The notes below the pieces were generated by a model. That model did not search any database. It worked only from the letters and a program-made list of their open reading frames with translations, and was not told the origin of the DNA. DNA of 63,552 bases, the filler included, from Reclinomonas americana ATCC 50394 (lineage: Eukaryota): NCBI GenBank assembly GCA_048213135.1. It is 17 parts of 17 records of this genome, joined end to end, with 100 filler letters (N's around TTAATTAATTAA, not from the genome) between each part and the next. Parts side by side here need not be neighbours in the genome. Positions count along the whole stretch, not along the records: positions 1 to 9,234 come from AFZH01021213.1; 16 more parts are not named here. One strand, written 5' to 3'. This document shows positions 626 through 51,888 of this stretch, one piece after another (position 1 is the stretch's first letter; every line of letters begins with the position of its first letter). The translations under genes and the position numbers were made by a program.

Positions 626-1122
626 TCAGGCGTCCTCGCCGCCATAGATAGCGTCGGTCACCATCTTGGAGACACCGGCGGCGACCGCACCCACTGCCGC
701 CTTGGTCGCCGCAGTGGCTCCTACGACGCCAGTCGATTGCAACGCGGCCACGCCGACTGCGAGAGCCTTGCCCACAACAGGGGTAGTGGCGGCCAGCGAC
801 ATCGCCTTGGCCGCGACGCTGCCGGCGGCGATACCAGCGGCACCAAAGCCGGCAGCCGCGACGACAAACGGAGTGCCGACGACGCCCGCCACCACGCCCA
901 CAGACAAGTGCGGGTGCTCCGTGACAAAGCCCCACACGGAGTCGACAAAGGTGCTCACAACGGAATCGTCGTTCTCCTCTGTGTGCGTACAAGAAATGGT
1001 GAGGGGCGAATGATGGTAAACCGGAACACGGACGCGCGCAACAAACCGCGGCAGGTGCCGGGGTGCGCAAGAGCGAAGAGACACATCGCGATGAGCGTAA
1101 TGCAAAGAGTGATGTTCTTCAT
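626..1122 (-). CDS. IFI6/IFI27 (ISG12)-family small hydrophobic protein with N-terminal signal peptide
   Basis: Exon 1122-1047 (MKNITLCITLIAMCLFALAHPGTCR), phase-1 intron 1046-979, exon 978-626. Contains AAGFGAAGIAAGSVAAKAMS...VAALQSTG, matching the ISG12 motif GF..GIAAGS.AA.MMS...VA.LQS.G. Confidence 0.8.
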
Positions 1123-1554
1123 GGTCAGCGCTCCGGGGGAAAGTGTGTCGGAAGAATAGGTTGCTGTCATGTGTTTGTGACAGGATCTAGAAGCCGTCGT
1201 GTCGGAAATGGAGTCGTGTTCGACGTAGGAAAACATGGGCGGTGGCCACGTGTCAACATACAGCTGGGGGCGACGATATTTCTAACGCGCAACTACAGAG
1301 TGTATGCACAGAAACAAGAGGGGCAGTCCAGAACGTAGGGTCAGCTGCAACAAAACACTTCCTTCACCACATTCCAATAATGCGACAAACGTCCACAAAT
1401 CCCTAGCCGACAATGACCTTGCCACACCATCAACATACAAAACGCATAATTACTCTTCTCCAACAGGCATCTTCCCTTTCAGTGCAATGGTATCAGCAAT
1501 TTACTATCTTACTCCCAATTTTACACGTACCCTCACATTCATCAAGAAGCCGTT

Positions 1555-2640
1555 TCACAGGTGCAACTGAGGATCAACAAGGCACCGATGTACCACTCCC
1601 TCCGCCTCCTCCACCAGAAAGCATCTCAGCACCAGCTCCGGTAAGCAACGTGAATCCACCACGTGCACTTCCCCATCTTGCATCTCCTGCACCGCCTGCA
1701 TCGCCGAACGCGCCCAATCGAGCTCGCTCCGAGCTAAGCCGCAAGGAGTGCACCACACTAGCACAGTATTGTCATAACCCCCACTGACAATGTGCTGCCC
1801 GTCCGGAGTGACGGCAACACATGACACCGTATCGGTGTGCCCCTCCAACCGATGCAATTCCTCACCGCTCGACAGCGACCACACGCGCACTGTCGTATCA
1901 TCACTGCAACTCACAATGTACATGCCGTTGAGAGTAACAGTGACAACGCGGACCGCACTGGAGTGCCCCTCCAGTCGTCGCGTCTCCACGCCACGCGCCA
2001 GCGACCACACACGCACTGTCCTATCATAACTCCCGCTCACAACGTGCTGGCCGTTGGGAGTGATGGCGAGAGACCACACCGAATCGGCGTGACCCTCCAG
2101 TCGTTGCACTTCTTCGCCACTCTCCATCGACCACACTCGTATTGTTGCATCACCGCTGCCGCTGACAACGTGCCGACCGTCGGGCGTGATGGCGACAGCT
2201 GACACCCACACAATGTGTCCTCTCAATAGCCACACGACCTCGCCGGTCGCCAGCGACCACACTCGCACTGTCATGTCGTCACTCCCGCTCACAAGGCGTT
2301 CACCGTTCCGAGTGATGACCACCGAGTGCACCCAGTTCGCGTGTCCCCTCACCTGTCGCACTTCTTCTCCAGTCGCCAACAACCATACACGCACAGTCGT
2401 GTCCGCGCTCCCGCTCACCACGAATCGACCATCGGGGGCGACGCTGACAGATGTAACCTCACGAGTGTGTCCAGTCAACCGTCGCACTTCCGCGCCAGTC
2501 GCCAGCGACCACACGCGTATCGCTCCATCGCCACATCCACCGACAACGAAGCGACCGTCGGGAGTGATGGCGAGGGACCACACAGTGGTGGTGACTCCCT
2601 CCAGCAGGCATTTTCGGAGGAAGAGGGGAGGGGTGGACAT
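1555..2640 (-). CDS. WD40 array copy 1: intronless 7-repeat WD40 protein plus conserved ~60-aa C-terminal tail
   Basis: Starts MSTPPLFLRKC (ATG 2640). Seven ~42-aa GH...TPDG...SG..D.TVRVW repeats. Tail CTPCGLARSEL...RCLPELVLRCFLVEEAE...DPQLHL. Confidence 0.9.
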   Translation of the reverse strand: MSTPPLFLRKCLLEGVTTTVWSLAITPDGRFVVGGCGDGAIRVWSLATGAEVRRLTGHTREVTSVSVAPDGRFVVSGSADTTVRVWLLATGEEVRQVRGHANWVHSVVITRNGERLVSGSDDMTVRVWSLATGEVVWLLRGHIVWVSAVAITPDGRHVVSGSGDATIRVWSMESGEEVQRLEGHADSVWSLAITPNGQHVVSGSYDRTVRVWSLARGVETRRLEGHSSAVRVVTVTLNGMYIVSCSDDTTVRVWSLSSGEELHRLEGHTDTVSCVAVTPDGQHIVSGGYDNTVLVWCTPCGLARSELDWARSAMQAVQEMQDGEVHVVDSRCLPELVLRCFLVEEAEGVVHRCLVDPQLHL

Positions 2641-3055
2641 GGGAGGGTGGAGAGAGGGTGGGAGGGGGAGATGAGAGGCGTAAGGGGAAGAGGGTGTGGA
2701 GGTGGTGGGATGGGATTGCGTGCACGCGAGTGTGCGAAATAAAAGAAGTGAATTGACGCAGGACGCGGCATACACGAAGAGCTGCACTCCTGAAGGCCTA
2801 CCGAGACGGGGGGCTCATCGCACGATGGAAAAAGAGGAAGAATTATCGTGCACGCATTCGCAGTTGAGGAAAGTGAAGCTCTCAAGAATCAGGTCTCCAC
2901 AACAGTGCAGTGCAACACCACTTTCGATCAATCGCCCTTCCAGCACCTCCTGCACCGCCTGCATCGACAGTAAGCCGCGTTCATCGACGACTTTATTCAA
3001 CAACACTTGAGTACCCAGTTTTGCAATCCCTTCCAGAACACTTCCCCATGAATCG

Positions 3056-4045
3056 TCACTCTCCTCCCACACAGCTACCCTCCTCTTGTCGGCATCGTCT
3101 CCGTTTCCGCCCCACCCCAATAATGGCCTCGCCGCGCGGCTTCACCTCACCCGTCACCGGATCGCTGGCGTTGGCGGCCAGCCACTGCACTGCGTGCCTC
3201 TCGAGATCTCCCACCGGCACGCCGGCATACGTGGCCAGGTCCTGCATCACCGGCATGCGCACAATGGCTTCCACCGCCTCGGCGGCCGACTGGAAAGTGG
3301 CGACCGGCTCCAGTGGCACCAGCGACGCGCGACAGTCACAAAACCCGGCCTCGCGCAACAGCTGCTCCATGCACTCGGTGGTGGGAATGGAGAGCGCACG
3401 CTGGATGCTGGCCGGCTGACCCTCCAGCGGCCGCCCCAACAACTCACTCGCAATCGTCAGCAGCCAGCCCACGTCTTCGTTGGAGGCCCACGAGCTGATC
3501 ACCACGGTGCCACGCGGTCCGCTGTCGTCGTCGTCGTCCTCCTCCTCCTCAGCAAACTTGAGCACTCGCAACATCTCTCGCAAGGCGGCGACTTGATCCG
3601 CAAAGAAGATCAGACCCCATCCGCACACCACCAGATCCACGGACTCGTCGGCGAACAGCGGGTGAAGGCACTGTGCATCTTGCACCACTCCGCGAATGAA
3701 TCGACGCAGGTCGCCCGACGCATGCTGCGCAGCACTGCGCAGCACAGTCTCAATCATGCGCGGAGCAATGTCCACTGCAGTGACGCTGCTGCTGCTGCTG
3801 CTGTGCGCATCCGTGGAAGCAAAGTGCTCGGCCGCCAGCAGCGACACAGGTCCACACCCGCACGCAATGTCCGCCACATGCAGTGGTGGCGCCGCCGCCG
3901 CGGAGGTCGTGGTCGGAAAAAAGCCGGCGGCGGACAACATGAGGCGCGCCATGAGGTCGGCCACGGGCCCGAAGCGTGCGAGTGCCTCACTGCCCTTGTC
4001 CCAGCCCTCGCTGGTGAAGGAGGCGGTGCCGTCGTCGTCGCTCAT
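3056..4045 (-). CDS. Class I SAM-dependent methyltransferase (UbiE/Methyltransf_11-like), intronless
   Basis: Motif I VADIACGCG, post-I VTAVDIAPRMI, then QDAQCL..FADESVDLVVCGWGLIFF..QVAALREMLRVLK. Likely start MSDDDG at 4045. Confidence 0.85.
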   Translation of the reverse strand: MSDDDGTASFTSEGWDKGSEALARFGPVADLMARLMLSAAGFFPTTTSAAAAPPLHVADIACGCGPVSLLAAEHFASTDAHSSSSSSVTAVDIAPRMIETVLRSAAQHASGDLRRFIRGVVQDAQCLHPLFADESVDLVVCGWGLIFFADQVAALREMLRVLKFAEEEEDDDDDSGPRGTVVISSWASNEDVGWLLTIASELLGRPLEGQPASIQRALSIPTTECMEQLLREAGFCDCRASLVPLEPVATFQSAAEAVEAIVRMPVMQDLATYAGVPVGDLERHAVQWLAANASDPVTGEVKPRGEAIIGVGRKRRRCRQEEGSCVGGE

Positions 4046-4221
4046 GCACGCCAATGAAAAAAAGTGATTTGCGGACGCGGACGAATGGGACAACAGCGAA
4101 GTGAAGGAGCCCTGGCGTGCCATTGGCGCAGTTTTCATTCACTCTTTTCTCCCCCTCACCCACTCTCTACTATTACACCTCCTATCTCGCGATCGACAAG
4201 CTTAATGCAGCAGACGCTCGC

Positions 4222-5325
4222 TCACGGTTCTGATGAAAGATACAACCACGTTTCCTCAACAGCGACGCACCGATGCACCACAGCCTCCGCCTCCTCGACT
4301 ATGAAGCAGCGCAGAACCATCTCGGGCAGGCACCGCGAATCCACCATCACCTCCTCGTCTTGCATTTCCTGCACGGCCTGCAACGCCCTGCGAGCCGTGT
4401 CGACGTCGCTGCGAGCGAGCCCGCGCGGCGTGGACCACACTCGGATCGTGTTGTCTGTGCCTCCGCTCACAATATGCTGCCCGTCGGGTGCCACCGCCAG
4501 GCACCACACTGCGCCAGTGTGTCCATCCAGCCGCTGCACTTCTTCGCCCGTCGCCAGTGACCACACCCGCACACTCATGTCCTCACCTCCACTCACAATG
4601 TGCTGACCGTCGGGGGTGATGGCAACACACAGAACTGCCTCGCTGTGACCCTCCAACACTTGCGATTCCTCCCTACTCACTGTCGACCACACTCGTACGG
4701 TCGCGTCGTCACCCGCACTCGCAATGTGCTGACCGTCGGGAGTAAAGGCGACAGACCACACCGCCCCGGTGTGACCCTCGAAGTTACGCCCTTGCTTTCC
4801 CGTCGCCACCGACCACATTCGCACCGTCGCATCACCGCTGGCACTCGCGATGTGTTGGCCATCGTGGCTGACGGCAGCGGACAGCACCTTGTCATCGTGG
4901 CCCTGCAACAGTTGCACCTCCTCAAACTCGTCAGTCATCGACCACACGCGAACTGTCTTGTCAAAGCTGCCGCTGACGATGCGCTGGTTGTCGGGAGTAA
5001 CGGCGACAGACCGCACCCAGTGAGCATGCCCGTCGAGTTGTCGGACCTCCTCGCCAGACGCCAGTGACCACACTCGTATTGTCAGATCCCAACTCCCACT
5101 GACAGCATACTGGCCGTCGGGAGTGACGGCCACACACTGCACAAAGCCAGCATGTCCCTCAAACCGTCGCACCTCCTCGCCACTCACCAACGACCACACT
5201 CGTGCTGTCTTGTCCTTGCTGCCGCTCACAACAAACTGGCAGTCGGGAGTGACGGCGAGGGACCACAGCGTGGCAGTGTGACCCACCAGCGAGCACTTGT
5301 GGAGGAAGAGAGGCGTGGTGGACAT
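4222..5325 (-). CDS. WD40 array copy 2: 7-repeat WD40 protein plus conserved tail
   Basis: Starts MSTTPLFLHKC (ATG 5325). Seven WD40 repeats. Tail ...RCLPEMVLRCFIVEEAE. Confidence 0.9.
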   Translation of the reverse strand: MSTTPLFLHKCSLVGHTATLWSLAVTPDCQFVVSGSKDKTARVWSLVSGEEVRRFEGHAGFVQCVAVTPDGQYAVSGSWDLTIRVWSLASGEEVRQLDGHAHWVRSVAVTPDNQRIVSGSFDKTVRVWSMTDEFEEVQLLQGHDDKVLSAAVSHDGQHIASASGDATVRMWSVATGKQGRNFEGHTGAVWSVAFTPDGQHIASAGDDATVRVWSTVSREESQVLEGHSEAVLCVAITPDGQHIVSGGEDMSVRVWSLATGEEVQRLDGHTGAVWCLAVAPDGQHIVSGGTDNTIRVWSTPRGLARSDVDTARRALQAVQEMQDEEVMVDSRCLPEMVLRCFIVEEAEAVVHRCVAVEETWLYLSSEP

Positions 5326-5510
5326 GTGGGGATGAGGGACTGGTATGCGGAGCTCTCCAAACAGGATCGAAAGAAAACAAGAGGCAAGCGGACAGACAAT
5401 GGCGTGCCAAAAAGAGATTTTGTCCGACCAAAGCAGATCAACACAAACGTACCTCGCTGGTTCATTAACACTGTAGCCATCGACTTCAAGTAAACGCTCC
5501 CGTAGCGCCG

Positions 5511-6587
5511 TTACAGGTGCAACTGGGGATCCGCAAGGCACCGATGCAGCACGACCTCCGCCTCCTCCACCAGGAAGCACCGCATCGCCATCTCTGGCAA
5601 GCAGCGCGAATCCTCCACCTCCCCAGCTTGCATCTCTTGCACCGCGCGCATCGCCAACCGCGCCTGGGCGAGCTCGCCACGAGCAAAACCGCAAGGAGTG
5701 CACCACACACTCACAACTCTATCAATACTGCCGCCCACAACGTGCTCACCATCGGGAGTGACGGCAACGGATGCCACAATAGACGTGTGCCCCTCCAGTC
5801 GTCGCGCCTCTCCACTCGCCAGCGACCATACGCACACAGTGCTGTCATCACTTCCACTGACCACGTACTGACCGCTGCGGGTGATGGCAACGGAGCGGAC
5901 CGCACTTGAGTGCCCTTTTAGTCGTCGCACCTCCTCGCCACTCGCCAGCGACCACACACGCATGGTGTTGTCGAAACTCCCGCTCACAACGAGGAGGCCG
6001 TCGGGAGTGACGGCGACAGCAAACACCGAATCATCGTGTCCCTCCAGCCGTCGCAGTTCCTCGCCGCTCACCAACGACCACAGTCGTATCGTCGTATCAC
6101 CGCTCCCAGTGAGAACGTGCTGACCGTCGGGCATGATGGCGACAGAGAGCACCGGCTCTGTGTGTCCCTCCAACCGTCGCACCTCCTCGCCACTCGTGGC
6201 AGACCACACGCGCACGGTGGCATCGAAACTCCCGCTCACAATCGAGCGGCCTTCAGGTGTCACAGCGACAGAGTACACCCAGTTTCTGTGCCCCTCCAAT
6301 CGCCGCACCTCCTCGCCACTCGCCAGTGACCACACGCGCACTGTCTTGTCGGCACTGCCACTCACGACATGGAGACCGTTGGGAGTGACGGCAACCGACA
6401 GCACCATGTCAGTGTGTCCCTCCAGCCGTCGCACTTCCTCGACACTCACCAGTGACCACACACGAATCGCTCCATCGCCACAGCCACCGACGAGGAACTG
6501 GCCGTCGGGAGTGACGGTGACCGAGTGCACAGCGGCGGTGAGTCCCTGCAGCGAGTGCTTGCAGAGAAGGAGAGGAGGGGTGGACAT
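5511..6587 (-). CDS. WD40 array copy 3: 7-repeat WD40 protein plus conserved tail
   Basis: Starts MSTPPLLLCKH (ATG 6587). Seven repeats. Tail ...RCLPEMAMRCFLVEEAE...DPQLHL. Confidence 0.9.
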   Translation of the reverse strand: MSTPPLLLCKHSLQGLTAAVHSVTVTPDGQFLVGGCGDGAIRVWSLVSVEEVRRLEGHTDMVLSVAVTPNGLHVVSGSADKTVRVWSLASGEEVRRLEGHRNWVYSVAVTPEGRSIVSGSFDATVRVWSATSGEEVRRLEGHTEPVLSVAIMPDGQHVLTGSGDTTIRLWSLVSGEELRRLEGHDDSVFAVAVTPDGLLVVSGSFDNTMRVWSLASGEEVRRLKGHSSAVRSVAITRSGQYVVSGSDDSTVCVWSLASGEARRLEGHTSIVASVAVTPDGEHVVGGSIDRVVSVWCTPCGFARGELAQARLAMRAVQEMQAGEVEDSRCLPEMAMRCFLVEEAEVVLHRCLADPQLHL

Positions 6588-7004
6588 GGGAGAGGGAAAG
6601 GGCGGGAGAGAGCGGGAGAAAAGGGAGAGGGAAGGGAGGGAGAGTGAGGGGGGAAGGGAGGGAGGGAAGAGTGTGTGAGAGGGACGAGCGAAACTTTGAT
6701 GAGGGGGAGAGTGTGAGGTGAGAGGTGTGAGAGAGGGAGAGAGGGGGACTTGTGGAAGTGTGTGTGTGAGATGGAAGGAGGAGAGAGAAGAACGATGCAA
6801 CGAGCGAGGGGAGAGAGAGAAAGAGAGAACGGAGGAGAAGAGCGAGGCTACACGTGCGCTATACAAACAAGTACGCATGAAATGGGACGACGGACGAACC
6901 GCATGCAGCGTGCACAACAAGCTTCACTTCTTAAGGCATGCCGAGTAAGAAGACCCATCATGCGATGGGGAAAAAGAGGAGTAGTTTTGGCAGCTGCAGT
7001 TAGC

Positions 7005-7757
7005 TCACAGGTGCAACTGGGGATCAACAAGACATCGATGCACCACAGCCTCGGCCTCCTCCACCATAAAGCAGCGCAACACCATCTCTGGTAAGCAGCG
7101 CGAATCCACCACCTCCCCGTCTTGCATCTCCTGCACAGCCTCCATAGCCGACCGCGCCCAGTCGACCTCGCCACGAGCAAAGCTGAATGGCGTGCACCAC
7201 ACGCGCACAGTTTTATCAAGACTGCCGCTGACAATGTGCTGGCCATCCGGGGTGACGGCAACCGACGTTACAGTTGCGGTGTGCCCCTCTAGCCGACACA
7301 CTTCATCGCCACTCGCCAGCGACCACACGCGCACGGTGGTGTCGGCGCTGCCAATCACAACGTGCTCGCCATCGGGAGTAAGAGCGACCGAGCGGACCGC
7401 GCCGTCGTGACCCTCCAGCCGCCGAACCTCCTCGCCACTCGCCAGCGACCACACACGCACTGTCTTGTCCCAACTCCCGCTCACAACGTGCTGGCCGTCG
7501 CGAGTGACGACGGCAGCAAACACTAAATCCGTGTGACCCTCCAACCTTTGTAGCTCCTCGCCACTCGCCAGAGACCACACCCGAATCGACATGTCACCGC
7601 TCGCGCTGACAACGTGCTGACCATCGGGCGTGACGGTGACAGACAGCACCGGATCCGTGTGTCCACGACATCGCAGCACTTCCTCGCCACTCGTGGCACA
7701 CCATATCTGCACTGTTTCGTCGTTGCTTCCGCTCATAATGTAACGAGCATCGGGAGT
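7005..7757 (-). pseudogene. WD40 array copy 4: 5'-truncated (about 4.5 repeats plus intact tail)
   Basis: Homology begins mid-repeat at TPDARYIMSG (~7757) and directly abuts the conserved upstream element. The MST-P start and first ~2.5 repeats are missing. Confidence 0.7.
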
Positions 7758-7920
7758 GCGCAAGTGTGTGACAGCGAAAGTAACGACAGGACGACGGACG
7801 CGTCGACAAATGCATGATCCAAGACGCAAAAGCTTCACTTCTTGAGGCGCAACCAAGAAAGGAGACCCATCGTGCGATGCACATAGTCAGAGTGTACTTG
7901 CAGGCATTTGGTTGCGAAGC

Positions 7921-9007
7921 TCACAGATGCAACTGGGGATCAACAAGACATCGATGCAACACGACCTCCGCTTCCTCCACCATGAAGCATCGCAGCGCCA
8001 ACTCCGGCAAGCAGCGCGAATGCACTTCGTCCTCGTCTTGCATCTCCTGCACTGCCTGCATTGCCGACCTCGCCTGCGCGAGCTCGCTTCGAGCAAAGCT
8101 ACAGGGAGTGCACCACACGCGCACAATCCTGTCATAACCGGCACTCATAATGTGCTGGCCGTCCGGAGCGACGGCGACAGCGGCTATCGGAGCAGTGTGC
8201 CCTTTCAGCCGACATCTTTCCTCCCCACTCGCCAGCGACCACACATGCACGTACATATTCTTGGCATCGCCGCTCGCACTGACCATGTGCAGGCCGTCGG
8301 GAGTAAGAGAGACAGCGCGGACCGCCCCAGCGTCCCTTCAATCGTCGCACTTGCTTGCCACTCGCCAGAGACCACACAAGCACTGTCTTGTCCCAGCTCC
8401 CGCTCACGACGTACTGGCCGTCGGGAGTGACGGCGACAGAGTACACCGTATCAGTGTGACCCTCCAATCGTCGCAGCTCCTCCCCACTCGCCAACGACCA
8501 TACACGCACTGTGTTATCTCCGCCTCCACTCACCACGTGCTGAGCATCGGGCGTAATCGCAACAGAGAGCACCCCACGACAGCGTCCCTCCAGCAGTTGC
8601 ACGTTCTTGCGGGTCGCCAGTGCCCCCACGCGAACGGAAGAGTCGAAACTCCCACTCACCACGTAACAGCCATCTGGAGTGACGGCGACAGACAACACGC
8701 ACTCAGTGTGTTCCCGTATGCTTCGCACTTGCTTGCCACTCACCAGCGACCAAATGCGCACTGTCTTATCCGCACTGCCACTCACAACATGCTGACCATC
8801 GGGAGTGATGGCGACACACAGCACCTCATCAGTGTGTCCTTCCAGCCTTCGCTCTTCCACGCTGCTCGCCAGCGACCACACTCGCACGGTGCTGTCAGCA
8901 CCGCCACTCACAATGTGCTGACCATCGGGAGTGACGGCGAGGGACCACACCACGTCGGTGTGTCCCTCCAGTGAGTGTTTGCAGAGAAGGAGAGGAGAGG
9001 TGGACAT
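7921..9007 (-). pseudogene. WD40 array copy 5: 7 repeats plus tail, frameshifted in repeat 6
   Basis: Starts MSTSPLLLCKH (ATG 9007). At ~8332 GGACGCT replaces the expected GGACACGCT (2-nt loss), splitting ORFs 8132-9007 and 7921-8286. Could be a sequencing error. Confidence 0.7.
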
Positions 9008-46616: not shown

Positions 46617-49600
46617 ATGAGTCTCCCCCTTCTGCCACTATGTCTTACTCGCCCACTTTCTCTTTGCCTCGCTCTTGCTTTCGCAAACGATTCTCTCTTA
46701 TTGTCTCTTCCTCTCCCTTCAGACATTCTCCTCATGTCTTCTTTTCCCCCATTCTCCTTGCCTCGCTCTCCCCCCCCCCCCCTCCCGCTCGTGCTTTTCT
46801 CTTTCACTCTCTCTAAATCTGACAATCTATTCACCTTCCCTTCCCACCCTGCACAGCTCCGTCGCATCGGCACCGTGGTGCTCGCGCTCGACGGGTACGA
46901 CGAGTGCGGCGAGGCACCCGGCAACGTGTACGTCAACCACGAACTGGATGTTGCGTTGCCCTTGTCAAGAAGAGTGACACACAATGCTGAGAGAGAGAGA
47001 AAGAGAGTGACTCGCTCAGTCGTGCAGAGCTGGCCCAACGTGCTGCTGGTGGTCTCGGTGCGACGCGAGTTCATCAGCCGCCTCGGCAACTTGTGGGCCG
47101 AGGGACATTTCGTGCCCGTGGACCCGAAGCTGTCGCGCGCCGAGCGGCTCCATCAGCCGGAGCGGACGCTCGTGCGGTGCATGCTGCGTCTGTTCTCCAA
47201 GGACGACGTTGATCTCTTTCTGCAAAAGTTGAGGGCAATTTCTGGTGAATCTCCCTTTGCCTTAGCTCACTCTGTGCGAGTAGGTTTGTGGAGTCGCGGG
47301 CGGATCGTTCTCGCTCCTGGGAGCAGCACAAGCAGCAGATCCAGCGCACACCCGGTCTGGATGGACTGGCCTCGTCGGTGAGTTGCTGGGAAAGGGAGAG
47401 AGATGAATGGGCCGTTGAAGTGGAGAAGTGGGTGTCGGAGGAGACTTGCGAGAAAGGGAGAGTCATCAGATGCAGACGAAGGAATAGTGCCGCGAGCAGG
47501 CGCATGCGTCGGGATTGTATGGAAGAAGATGACTACATTCGTAAGGGCAAGAGTTTTGTTGTGGAAAAGGCTCCCTGTATTAGACGCAAGTATTGTCGAA
47601 CCCATGGGGAAAAAGAGCCCGTCGCATGCTGATGGGAGAGGAGAGGAGAGGAGAGGAGAGGAGAGGAGAGGAGAGGAGAGGAGAGGAGAGGAGAGGAGAG
47701 GAGAGGAGAGGAGAGGAGAGGAGAGGAGAGGAGAGGNNNNNNNNNNNNNNNNNNNNNNNNNNNNNNNNNNNNNNNNNNNNTTAATTAATTAANNNNNNNN
47801 NNNNNNNNNNNNNNNNNNNNNNNNNNNNNNNNNNNNTCCCTACTCTCCCTCTCTCACTCTCCCTCCCTCTCTCCCTCCCTCCCACTCTCTCTCTCTCCCA
47901 TTACAGCGAACACAACAGGCTGTTGCGGAGCAAGACGTGTGGAACAAATGGTTCGATCGTGATGATCCACTGCAAAACTCCCTTGTGCGCGCTGTTGCGT
48001 CGTCGTCGTTTGCCCTCTCCCGTCGTCATATGTGTCCTTGCGTTCTCAATGGACAGGACGACACAGGCGTTGCTCAAATGGAGTCGACTCGGAGCGTCAC
48101 AACAGCGTGTGGAGTTCATGCACAAATCGGTGCTGGAGTACTTTGCCGCTCAATCGTGGCTGGCTGATGTGCGGCTGTTGGCCAATGAGGAGGTGGAGAT
48201 GGAGGTAGCATCGTCGTGCTTCTCTGATTGTCTCACTCGCATGGTGCTGAAATATCTTCGTGCAGGATCGACTCGACCGACTGTGCTCCAGCTTTAGTGG
48301 CCAGCGGGCACTGCTCACATCCGATGAAGTGAGTGCATCGATACCATCAACATGAGTGCTCCTGTGTTCACCTCCTTCGATGATTGCAGGGCCTCAACTC
48401 AATCCTGTCGTTCATCGCCGAGCAAGTGCAGTCGGATCCGTCCCTTCATGGTGTGATGTGGAAGGCCATGGCACTCTCGTGCACAGAGGAAAGAGTCGCG
48501 GTCGTGTCTTCGAGTGCCGCCAGTGCGCTGTGCCTCGCGGAGGTGTCGTTTAGTGGGCGAGATCTGTCGGGCGTGCGAATCCCAGGCGCGGATCTGAGGG
48601 ATGCAGTGATGCATAGGACGGTGTGGAAGGGGGCGGATTTGCGAGGGGTGAATGTGTGCCTGGCCTACGGGAGAGAGGCGGATTTCAGAGGAGCGGATGT
48701 GACGGGCGTGAAGTGGCCGAGCAAGCCAATGGAGGGACACACGAGGACGGTGCATGCAGTGGCTGTCACTCCCGACGGGCAGTATGCGGTAAGTAGGAGC
48801 TCTGACTGTACATTGCGTGTGTGGTCACTGGCGACTGGAACGGAGATGCAACGATTGTTGGGTCACTATCACTATGTACACGTCGTTGCTGTCACTCCCG
48901 ACGGCAAGCACATTGTTAGTGGGAGTGAAGACAACACTGCGCGAGTGTGGTCGCTGGCGACTGGAGAAGAGGTGCGACTGTTTGCCGGGCACGCTCAATA
49001 TGTATACTGTGTTGCCGTCTTTCCTGACGGTCAGCTCGTTGCAAGTGGGGGTGCCGACAATACAGTACGAGTGTGGTCACTGGCTGATGGAGAAGAGGTG
49101 CGACAGTTCGTGGGGGACGACGGTTGGGCGATGTGTGTCGCTGTCACTCCCGACGGGCAACACATCGTCAGCGGGAGCTTGGAGGGCACAATACGAGTGT
49201 GGTCTCTGGCGAGTGGGGATGAAGTGCATCGCCTGATGGGGCACACTGGTGGTGTGCGGTCAGTCGCCGTAACCCCCGATGGTCAGTGCATTGTGAGTGG
49301 CGGCAATGACGGCGGGACCGTGCGGGTATGGTCGATGGTCAGTGGAGAGGAGGTGCGAACGCTCGAGGGACACGCTGACGCGGTGTCGTCCGTCGCCGTT
49401 ACTCCGGATGGTCAGTACGTTGTGAGTGGAAGTGAAGACAGCACAATACGTATGTGGTCACTGGGAAGCGGTGAAGAGGTGCGCCGGTTGGAGGGACATA
49501 CGGATGCGGTGTCATCTGTTATTTGCACTCTCGACGGCCAGCGAATAGTGAGCGGCAGTAGAGACGAGAGTGTCCGAGTGTGGTCCATGGCAGGTGGAGA

Positions 49601-50573
49601 AGAGGTGCGACGATTGGAGGGGCACACCGACGTCGTGCAGTCTGTTGCAGTCAGTAGCGATGGCCGCTACATTGTGAGTGGAAGCATGGACCACTCTACC
49701 CGACTGTGGTCAGTGGCGAGTGGGGAAGAGGTGCGACGGTTGGAGGGCCACGAAGGCGAGGTGCGGTCGGTTGCCATCACTCCCGATGGCCTGCACATTG
49801 TGAGCGGGAGCGGAGCAGAAGGCGAAGACGGCATTGTGCGACTGTGGTCGGTGGCGAGTGGAGAAGAGGTTCTGCAGTTGGAGGGACATGAGGACTTGGT
49901 CAGCTCACTCGCCGTCACCCCCGATGGCCAGTACATTGTCAGTGGGAGTGCAGATGGCACTGTGCGAGTGTGGTCGCTGTCGAGTGGAGAGGAGGTGCGA
50001 ATGCTGAAGGGACACACTTACTTTGTGACTTCCGTCGTGATCACGGCTGACGGTGAGCACATTGTGAGCGGCGCTAGAGATGGAACCGTGCGTGTGTGGT
50101 CTGTGGCGGGAGGCGAAGAAGTGCAATGCATCAACTACGATGACAGCGTGTGGTCTGTCGCCGTCGCTCCCGACGGTCAGCAAATCGTCAGTGGAAGTGA
50201 GGACAGCATGATCTGTGTGTGGTCGCTGGCGAGTGGCGAGCGGGAACAAGAGCTGGAGGGTCACGCCGAACCGGTGATGGCAATTGCCGTGACACCCGAC
50301 GGGCAGTATATAGTGAGCGGCAGTGCGGATATGACGGTGAGCGTGTGGTCGCTGGCGAGTGGCGAGGAGGTGCAGACATTGGAGGGACACACGGGTCTTG
50401 TGATGTCAGTCGTCGTTATGCCGGATGGGCGGCACATTGTTAGTGCGGGTGAGGATAACACGATTCGGTTGTGGTCGATGGCGCAGGAGGAGGAGGGGTG
50501 GGAGGGGGTGTTGTTGCATCGTGTTTTTGGTTCTTTTTTGCCTGATTTTACTGGTGCGGTGTTTGAGGAATGA
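44155..50573 (+). CDS. NLR-like STAND protein: N-terminal region - NACHT NTPase - pentapeptide repeats - 14 WD40 repeats (5' end uncertain, possibly from ~43700)
   Basis: Walker A VLVVAGWSGGGKS (exon from 46327), Walker B VVLALDGYDE (~46875), sensor SWPNVLLVVSVRREF, WHD EFMHKSVLEYFAA (~48112), pentapeptides FSGRDLSGVRIPGADLRDAV...ADFRGADVTGV, 14 WD repeats in one final exon (~48390-50573). Some NACHT exons fall in gaps. Confidence 0.88.
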
Positions 50574-50944: not shown

Positions 50945-51888
50945 TCGGTGTTCCACTCGGCGGCCAGCGAAGGCCAACTGGCAGTTCTCGAGTACTTGTG
51001 GGCGGAGAGCGGAGTCGGCGGACAGCTGGCGCGCATGACTTCGGCTAACGGTTGGACTCCGCTCATGGCGGCCGCGGCAAAAGGGCGAGTGGGAGTGGTT
51101 GATTGGTTGCTGGCCGAGGAACGGCGGTGTCCGCCCGAGATCGTACACGCCGTCACCAATCGAGGCAGTAACGCGTCGCAGTGTAGTGCGCTGCATTTGG
51201 CGGCCATGAATGGGCGCGAGGGTGTGGTGCAGCTGCTGGCCAGACGGTTTCCGGAGCTGGTGCATGCGGTCAATGGGGCGGGCTTGACGCCGGCGCAGGC
51301 GGCGCGGGAGAAGGGGAAGCATGATGTGGCGGAGGTGCTGGATATGCATGCGAGAGAGTCGCCGGCCTCGCGCTTTCCTCCTCCTCCTCGGTCGCCATCT
51401 CCTCCTCCACCACCTCCTCCTCCACCACCGCGACAGGTGAGCGCGACTCACGCACTGTTCACAATGCGCGGTTGCTCACTGCACGATTGCAGCAGCAGCA
51501 TGACAAGAACGCGCCACTCGCGCCCTCGCAGGAGGAGAACGAGTACGCAGAGATTGTGGCGCAACTGCAGCGTGCCAACGAGGAGCTGCAGCGAGGCATG
51601 GAAAAGGCGCAGCTCGTGAATGAGCACTTGCAGGCGCAGCTGGCGGCGGTGCAGGGGGAGAGGGATGAGCTGGCGGCGCGATTGGTTGCCGTGCTGCAGC
51701 TGGTGGAGGAGAGGGAGGGCGAGGTGGAGCAGCTGCGGAGGGAGGCGGAGGGAGGAGGAGAGGGGAGGGGGAGGAGGAGGGGAGGGTGGAGAAGGGGAAG
51801 AGGAAGAGGGAGAAGGAGGGGAAGGGGAAGAGGAGGGAGAAGGAGAAGGGGAGGAGAAATGAATATAAGTGGCTTGCAATGTGCCTGA
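50945..51888 (+). CDS. Ankyrin-repeat protein with poly-Pro linker and C-terminal coiled coil (5' end lost in gap)
   Basis: GWTPLMAAAAKGRVGVVDWLL, SALHLAAMNGREGVVQLL, GLTPAQAAREKG. Intron ~51437-51492, then heptad-rich LQRANEELQ... exon. Confidence 0.8.

Follow-up and report, generated by a model that had tools for sequence, protein, structure and literature searches.

Highly repetitive WD40 propellers are already known to be tied to STAND ATPases and to immunity (passages of PMC9218822; also PMC5587647), and in HET-E of Podospora anserina the codon pairs 7/9 and 25/27 of the repeat are positively selected and have been placed on the top face of the propeller (excerpt of PMC1805685). Little is understood of the way in which single-celled eukaryotes detect viruses and intracellular bacteria. 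Here we describe a family of WD40 genes in Reclinomonas americana ATCC 50394 (assembly GCA_048213135.1), five members of which lie on the minus strand between positions 1555 and 9007 of a 63,552-nt stretch of joined contig parts (the window; all positions count along it). Each complete member encodes a single WD40 propeller followed by a constant C-terminal tail, which the first-pass annotation took for a possible PRANC-like F-box. Building on the computed fold, variable positions, tail constraint, copy number and shared repeat type, we infer ligand binding, tail docking and an immune role: with a probability of roughly 0.45, these proteins would be cytosolic recognition adaptors with a variable top face and a constant, non-F-box hairpin that docks one partner or bundles the proteins, serving a non-self surveillance shared with NOD-like receptors (NLRs). 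New here are the genome-wide count of the family, a controlled F-box test and a repeat-level comparison with the NLR-like genes.

The five-copy array

All five co-oriented paralogs are found where they had been placed, three of them intact, one 5'-truncated and one frameshifted. The features of the array are as follows.

1555–2640, minus strand: copy 1 (c1), intact, 361 residues; a short N-terminal propeller-closing strand, seven WD40 repeats of 42 residues and a 65-residue tail
1555–1752, minus strand: c1 tail; helix 1, an acidic loop of variable length, and helix 2 with the invariant core L-x-E-x-V-x-R-C-F-x-V-E
2935–2966, minus strand: probably what is left of a decayed sixth tail, between c1 and a methyltransferase gene; a QAVQE-like segment, 87.5% identical to the c1 tail over 32 nt (blastn E 3e-5)
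4222–5325, minus strand: copy 2 (c2), intact, 367 residues, seven repeats and tail; of another subfamily than c1 and c3
4222–4434, minus strand: c2 tail, diverged at its C-terminal end
5511–6587, minus strand: copy 3 (c3), intact, 358 residues, seven repeats and tail; grouped with c1 as its sister (tree support 0.98)
5511–5702, minus strand: c3 tail
7005–~7790, minus strand: copy 4 (c4), 5'-truncated; four full repeats and part of a fifth, with an intact tail (7005–7196)
7921–9007, minus strand: copy 5 (c5), seven repeats and tail (7921–8112), with a frameshift near 8335

Copies c1 to c3 are single open reading frames (ORFs) with seven Pfam WD40 stretches in each, which bears out the claim of exactly seven repeats per complete copy. 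Copy c4 lacks a start codon from which a full propeller could be read, and the frameshift in c5 reflects either a pseudogene or an assembly error. The copies are 65–76% identical at the DNA level, and their tails, 63–70 residues long, carry the motifs described for them in the first-pass annotation. Spacer and 3' gene parts are duplicated between 6919–7650 and 7830–8573 at 76% identity, marking the tandem unit that gave rise to copies 4 and 5.

The copies had also been called intronless in an intron-rich genome. The genomic background is indeed intron-rich, since Skp1 and cullin genes align exon by exon; the intronless state applies to c1 to c3, but several paralogs on contigs C51, C56 and C58 have a last ORF without a start methionine, and these may carry a 5' exon and a 5' intron. 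This start-less last ORF marks a subfamily (loci L099, L100, L101, L108 and L116, on the same contigs) in which the tail ends right after the last R-C.

A seven-bladed propeller with a variable top face

An AlphaFold2 model from 55 paralogs shows a seven-bladed propeller closed by an N-terminal strand, with a predicted local distance difference test score (pLDDT) above 90, followed by two helices at pLDDT ~60. Sequence, Pfam, model and Foldseek agree on a ring closed by seven GH...WD-type repeats, and the best Foldseek matches of the propeller are PkwA (5yzv) and the WRAP-type 2ymu, at 37–40% identity and a root-mean-square deviation (rmsd) of ~1 Å.

Across 108 full-length genes, repeat positions 16, 17, 19, 35 and 37 reach an entropy of 3.2–3.8 bits in every blade, and mean pairwise identity falls to 10% on the top face, so that the surface variability first noted in the window holds throughout these genes; 518 distinct four-residue top-face combinations occur among 573 repeats. 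The variable positions 17, 19, 35 and 37 flank a conserved V18 and D36 and, through the same flanking V and D, correspond to the selected HET-E codons 7, 9, 25 and 27. In the same genes identity is 63% in the tail, 58% over all repeat positions, 65% in the scaffold and 73% in tail helix 2. A tail much more conserved than the repeats, as had been proposed, is thus seen for helix 2 only, the tail as a whole lying slightly above the repeats and below the scaffold.

The ratio of nonsynonymous to synonymous substitution rates (dN/dS, or omega), counted on 14 disjoint close pairs, is 0.84 (0.55–1.10) on the top face as against 0.30 in the scaffold; the two tail helices stand at 0.32 (helix 1) and 0.21 (helix 2). 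A codon model of the 108 genes gives 0.72–0.93, 0.22 (from 60 sampled codons), 0.21 and 0.11–0.13, respectively, with a tree length at top-face codons 3.8 times that at scaffold codons. The top face is therefore free or diversifying, and omega above 1 is not supported.

These values bear on the possibility that the products are ordinary scaffolds or decoys whose genes spread through tandem duplication and drift, with an unconstrained face and a tail that is a structural or oligomerising cap. Top-face omega not above 1 fits such a history, as do the age of the family and the broken copies (two of the five in the window and some elsewhere; see below). We nevertheless consider it unlikely: top-face codons evolve on a tree several times longer than that of the scaffold, the variable sites coincide with the ligand face selected in HET-E, and some 90% of assessable copies are intact with scaffold and tail under purifying selection, a state that drift alone would not maintain across hundreds of genes.

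The tail is a predicted helical hairpin and matches no F-box profile

A model of the free tail, based on 73 diverse tails, is a confident antiparallel hairpin of helices 3–26 and 36–59 (mean pLDDT 86), presumably leaving the propeller on the face opposite the variable one, as WD40 topology would have it. Helix 2 is the most constrained part of the tail, and R-C-F is fixed across 153 tails and likewise in alignment A1. Nearly every position of residues 333–346 is conserved, beyond what one face of a hairpin would need, pointing to a surface used for binding or bundling. The matches listed in fold searches with the tail are generic, either hairpins or coiled coils, the best reaching Z 8.7 at an rmsd of 2.1 over 62 aligned residues; no F-box, SOCS or VHL entry is among them, which does not exclude such a match.

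In the first-pass annotation the genes were tentatively read as SCF (Skp1–cullin–F-box) substrate receptors whose tail is a truncated, C-terminal, Skp1-binding F-box of PRANC type. The pattern phi-P-x2-phi-x3-phi, given as the poxviral F-box consensus in part of PMC6232478, is short and unspecific; 119 of 153 tails do contain it, at the C-terminal end and behind a helix. The hydrophobic F-box positions 5, 6, 9 and 10 are kept in 149–153 of the 153 tails. Poxviral F-boxes can function with two helices and even with a single one (passages of PMC4353913), and the tail stops at most 16 residues past the RCF motif in 10 of 153 cases; protist F-boxes can moreover be cryptic (according to an excerpt of PMC9485057). 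The genome encodes Skp1 and cullins, in intron-containing genes. A variable domain joined to a constant tail is also the usual plan of expanded F-box families.

The profile tests speak against this assignment. In 71 tails searched with Pfam at E values up to 10, there is no F-box, PRANC or SOCS box. A hidden Markov model (HMM) of the F-boxes of this genome, built from only 10 sequences, scores the 153 tails at a median of -1.0 and a maximum of 1.1 bits, level with shuffled tails (median -0.8), whereas left-out true F-boxes score 12.8–35.7 bits; hhalign of the tail with the same ten F-boxes gives a probability of 0.2–0.3%. A PRANC HMM detects nothing in the genome, although its controls likewise gave no match. 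In an ungapped register, the acidic position 4 and the hydrophobic position 13 of F-boxes are absent from all 153 tails, and Val or Ala takes the place of the pattern's proline in 31 of 153, with R-C-F staying fixed. At the place of the short helix and turn of an F-box, the tail model shows an unbroken 24-residue helix; two or three short helices after L-P are not seen in the free-tail model, although the tail could adopt another form when bound. The paired matches point to no more than about three Skp1 paralogs in each haplotype. The proposal of an F-box or PRANC tail is thus weakly supported, and we regard a Skp1-binding F-box as improbable. The genome also holds another, small family of F-box genes, which are uninterrupted and have long N-termini rich in Ala and Thr (L063, L064, L066–L068).

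The Cul2 box has the same phi-P-x2-phi-x3-phi spacing, so the tail might instead be a non-canonical adaptor to another cullin ligase, either with helix 1 and a Cul2/Cul5-box-like helix for Elongin B/C or with an H-box-like helix for DDB1/Cul4. An Elongin C-like gene, identified by reading its sequence, is present (L118). BC, SOCS and VHL boxes are usually C-terminal (part of PMC6232478), and H-boxes are single helices of only moderately conserved sequence (part of PMC3928422). Against this, the BC box [TSP]-L-x3-[CSA]-x3-phi (pattern from the same part of PMC6232478) occurs in only 3 of 153 tails, the WDxR motif (from the part of PMC3928422 just cited) in none of 577 repeats, and no SOCS box is found in the tails by Pfam or over the cut-off in the genome. 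We judge this option to be about as improbable as the F-box. A cullin-ligase adaptor of any kind, whether through Skp1 or through Elongin or DDB1, is doubtful but a good deal less so than either of these routes; it is kept in view because the architecture is typical of such receptors.

A large and old family

The family is far larger than the window reveals, as the first-pass annotation had anticipated in calling it expandable. A genome search with the c1 tail gives 1,559 candidates, 150 of which were scored, all at E 2e-21 or better. The assembly holds 1,156 exact matches to a 20-base pattern that encodes R-C-F-x-V-E-[ED], far above the chance level indicated by the reversed pattern, which has 2. 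Skp1, F-box and cullin matches occur as near-identical pairs, so both haplotypes were probably assembled, and the number of copies per haplotype may be about half of 1,156.

The loci fetched for closer analysis, a small part of the 1,156 and biased toward close relatives of the queries, contain 165 distinct motif sites, of which 26 have N-gaps and 24 lie at an edge; 103 of the remaining 115 are intact and 12 broken. In the same sample, a WD40 signature lies upstream in 160 of 173 tail-bearing frames. The other 13 are fragments, gaps or frame breaks in which no other partner domain is found, leaving WD40 as the only partner of the tail seen in these loci. Most gene pairs are near synonymous saturation (median proportion of synonymous differences, pS, 0.585), so the family is old and not recently amplified. 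At L098 (C51:275991–277138), five tail fragments lie close together and most of them lack an intact propeller, a case of local tandem decay.

Relatives elsewhere are few. An HMM of 71 tails has three matches among 1.84 billion representative proteins, an expressed sequence tag (EST) fragment labelled Reclinomonas americana and two Logan proteins. At least one jakobid thus transcribes the family, as the EST record shows. The two Logan proteins have strongly diverged propellers and keep the tail core, and for protein P0002 identity with the genomic copies does not exceed 33% over long matches; survival of the core beside such propellers would favour a recognition adaptor with a constant docking module. 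A word-index search with the tail region gives no relative among 7 candidates, pattern scans of viral, metagenome and prokaryote contigs confirm no tail relative, a PDB sequence search with the tail gives 0 matches, and an ESM Atlas search yields no named cluster and no score above 0.76. No description of this family was found in the literature, judged by titles and abstract openings.

A repeat type shared with NACHT-WD40 genes

The genome also encodes many NLR-like proteins. Out of 287 candidates, at least 97 match NACHT, and most of these matches lie in long frames free of interruptions; 15 of 16 fetched NACHT loci carry 9–16 WD motifs. The repeats of these genes (n = 145) have the same consensus and the same variable sites as those of the small family. 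Identity at fourfold-degenerate sites is 0.53 within genes of the small family, 0.52 between them, 0.44 between the small family and the NLRs and 0.43 within the NLRs, against 0.27 expected from base composition, and the nearest neighbour of 55 of the 145 NLR repeats lies in the small family. The two groups appear to draw on a shared repeat pool, with no sign of recent homogenisation. Given the same consensus, the same variable sites and the shared fourfold sites, the small genes look like NLR-type sensor rings that lack the ATPase and have a tail of their own; no NACHT is found in the same protein as the tail, the family genes (~360 residues) comprising propeller and tail only.

The fetched NACHT loci (L126–L141) contain ORFs of ~1,400 residues with a conserved N-terminal domain bearing R-N-x-x-x-H, then NACHT, then the WD motifs. 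The N-terminal domain gives weak Swt1-like HEPN matches (E 0.01–0.02) in 2 of 4 cases tested, making this family a candidate set of RNase-armed protist NLRs.

Neighbouring genes in the window

A gene further along the window resembles these NACHT-WD40 genes.

46548–50573, plus strand: an NTPase-like region, then pentapeptide-like repeats, then 14 WD40 repeats of the same consensus, confirmed by Pfam; no tail

Its NTPase-like/NACHT part (46551–47378) has no Pfam match, and by its motifs the gene appears to belong to the NACHT-WD40 family of the genome. Just past it, across an N gap, lies an ankyrin-repeat ORF (50948–51616, plus strand). Within the array, between c1 and c2, stands an unrelated, uninterrupted ORF for an S-adenosylmethionine-dependent methyltransferase (3056–4138, minus strand; Methyltransf_11, E 3.5e-12), and directly downstream of the array, on the same strand, is a gene of the interferon-induced 6-16 family (Ifi-6-16; 626–1186, minus strand; E 1.1e-11). 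The longest apparent open frames that we looked at are artefacts of N-gaps.

Discussion

We propose that each gene yields one seven-bladed propeller whose four to five nearly unconstrained top-face residues per blade would give every paralog a different binding surface. The two-helix hairpin on the opposite face would dock all paralogs to one conserved partner, or bundle paralogs with one another, and could do so without being a canonical F-box. The repeats and the WD40 sensor domains of the NACHT-WD40 NLR-like genes would have one pool as their source, and this sharing would make non-self surveillance the most likely role, with viral, bacterial or altered self proteins caught by the propeller and passed to a common effector.

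Several observations weigh against this proposal. Fixing top-face omega at 1 shifts the log-likelihood (lnL) by 0.4, and the counted interval of 0.55–1.10 includes 1, so relaxed constraint fits as well; the same repeat positions are variable in many WD40 proteins. The tail reaches a pLDDT of only ~60 in the full-length model. It is absent from all 16 fetched NACHT loci, and a match of the tail to an NLR N-terminal domain or helix was rejected (hhalign 0.2%), so that no physical link to the NLRs is apparent. The codons shared with them could stem in part from position-specific codon bias, and the ligand of the propeller and the partner of the tail are putative.

In a bolder version of the same proposal, which we hold as tentative and less likely, this free-living, jakobid-like protist would possess an intracellular, antibody-like repertoire encoded in the germline: each haplotype would have several hundred receptors of a single propeller, sharing a repeat pool with about 100 or more HEPN-like/NACHT/WD40 NLRs and joined by a new hairpin module to one effector, possibly a cullin ligase engaged by a new docking mode. 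About a thousand assembled copies with HET-E-like faces, beside a large NLR-like family built of the same repeat and in a deep-branching lineage, would make a strong candidate recognition system. The constant tail offers a shared handle through which the effector could be named; should that effector be a cullin ligase, the tail would represent a new docking motif for substrate receptors. An F-box label is premature while Skp1 binding is putative.

Among described systems, WSB1/2 combine a seven-bladed WD40 domain with a SOCS box, and the present family resembles them in joining such a propeller to a short helical module that may serve for docking. DCAF receptors (part of PMC3928422) offer the same likeness, but, unlike in either group, a BC box is all but missing here and WDxR is absent. 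With the ANK-PRANC proteins of poxviruses and Orientia (as described in parts of PMC4353913 and PMC6232478) the family shares a repeat domain, a helix, a C-terminal phi-P-x2-phi-x3-phi and multiple copies; unlike them it is cell-encoded, has WD40 in place of ankyrin repeats, no PRANC or F-box profile match, a proline that is not fixed, an invariant RCF-x-VE core and a predicted long hairpin. The closest structural matches, the highly repetitive propellers of PkwA and WRAP type (part of PMC9218822), belong to proteins with bacterial kinase or STAND domains and without this tail. The NWD/HNWD proteins of Podospora anserina (HET-E and HET-D; part of PMC1805685) come nearest, with consensus-like 42-residue repeats, the same four variable top-face positions and a family-wide repeat pool that includes NACHT-WD genes. 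Unlike these, the present genes encode a stand-alone single propeller without NACHT or HET and with an orphan C-terminal hairpin; they number hundreds to a thousand against ten in Podospora, their repeats are only ~59% identical, and top-face omega is indistinguishable from 1, where HET-E is positively selected. The family is not to be filed under F-box proteins and is not an NWD protein family, yet in its working it is like the sensors of HET-E and the NWD proteins.

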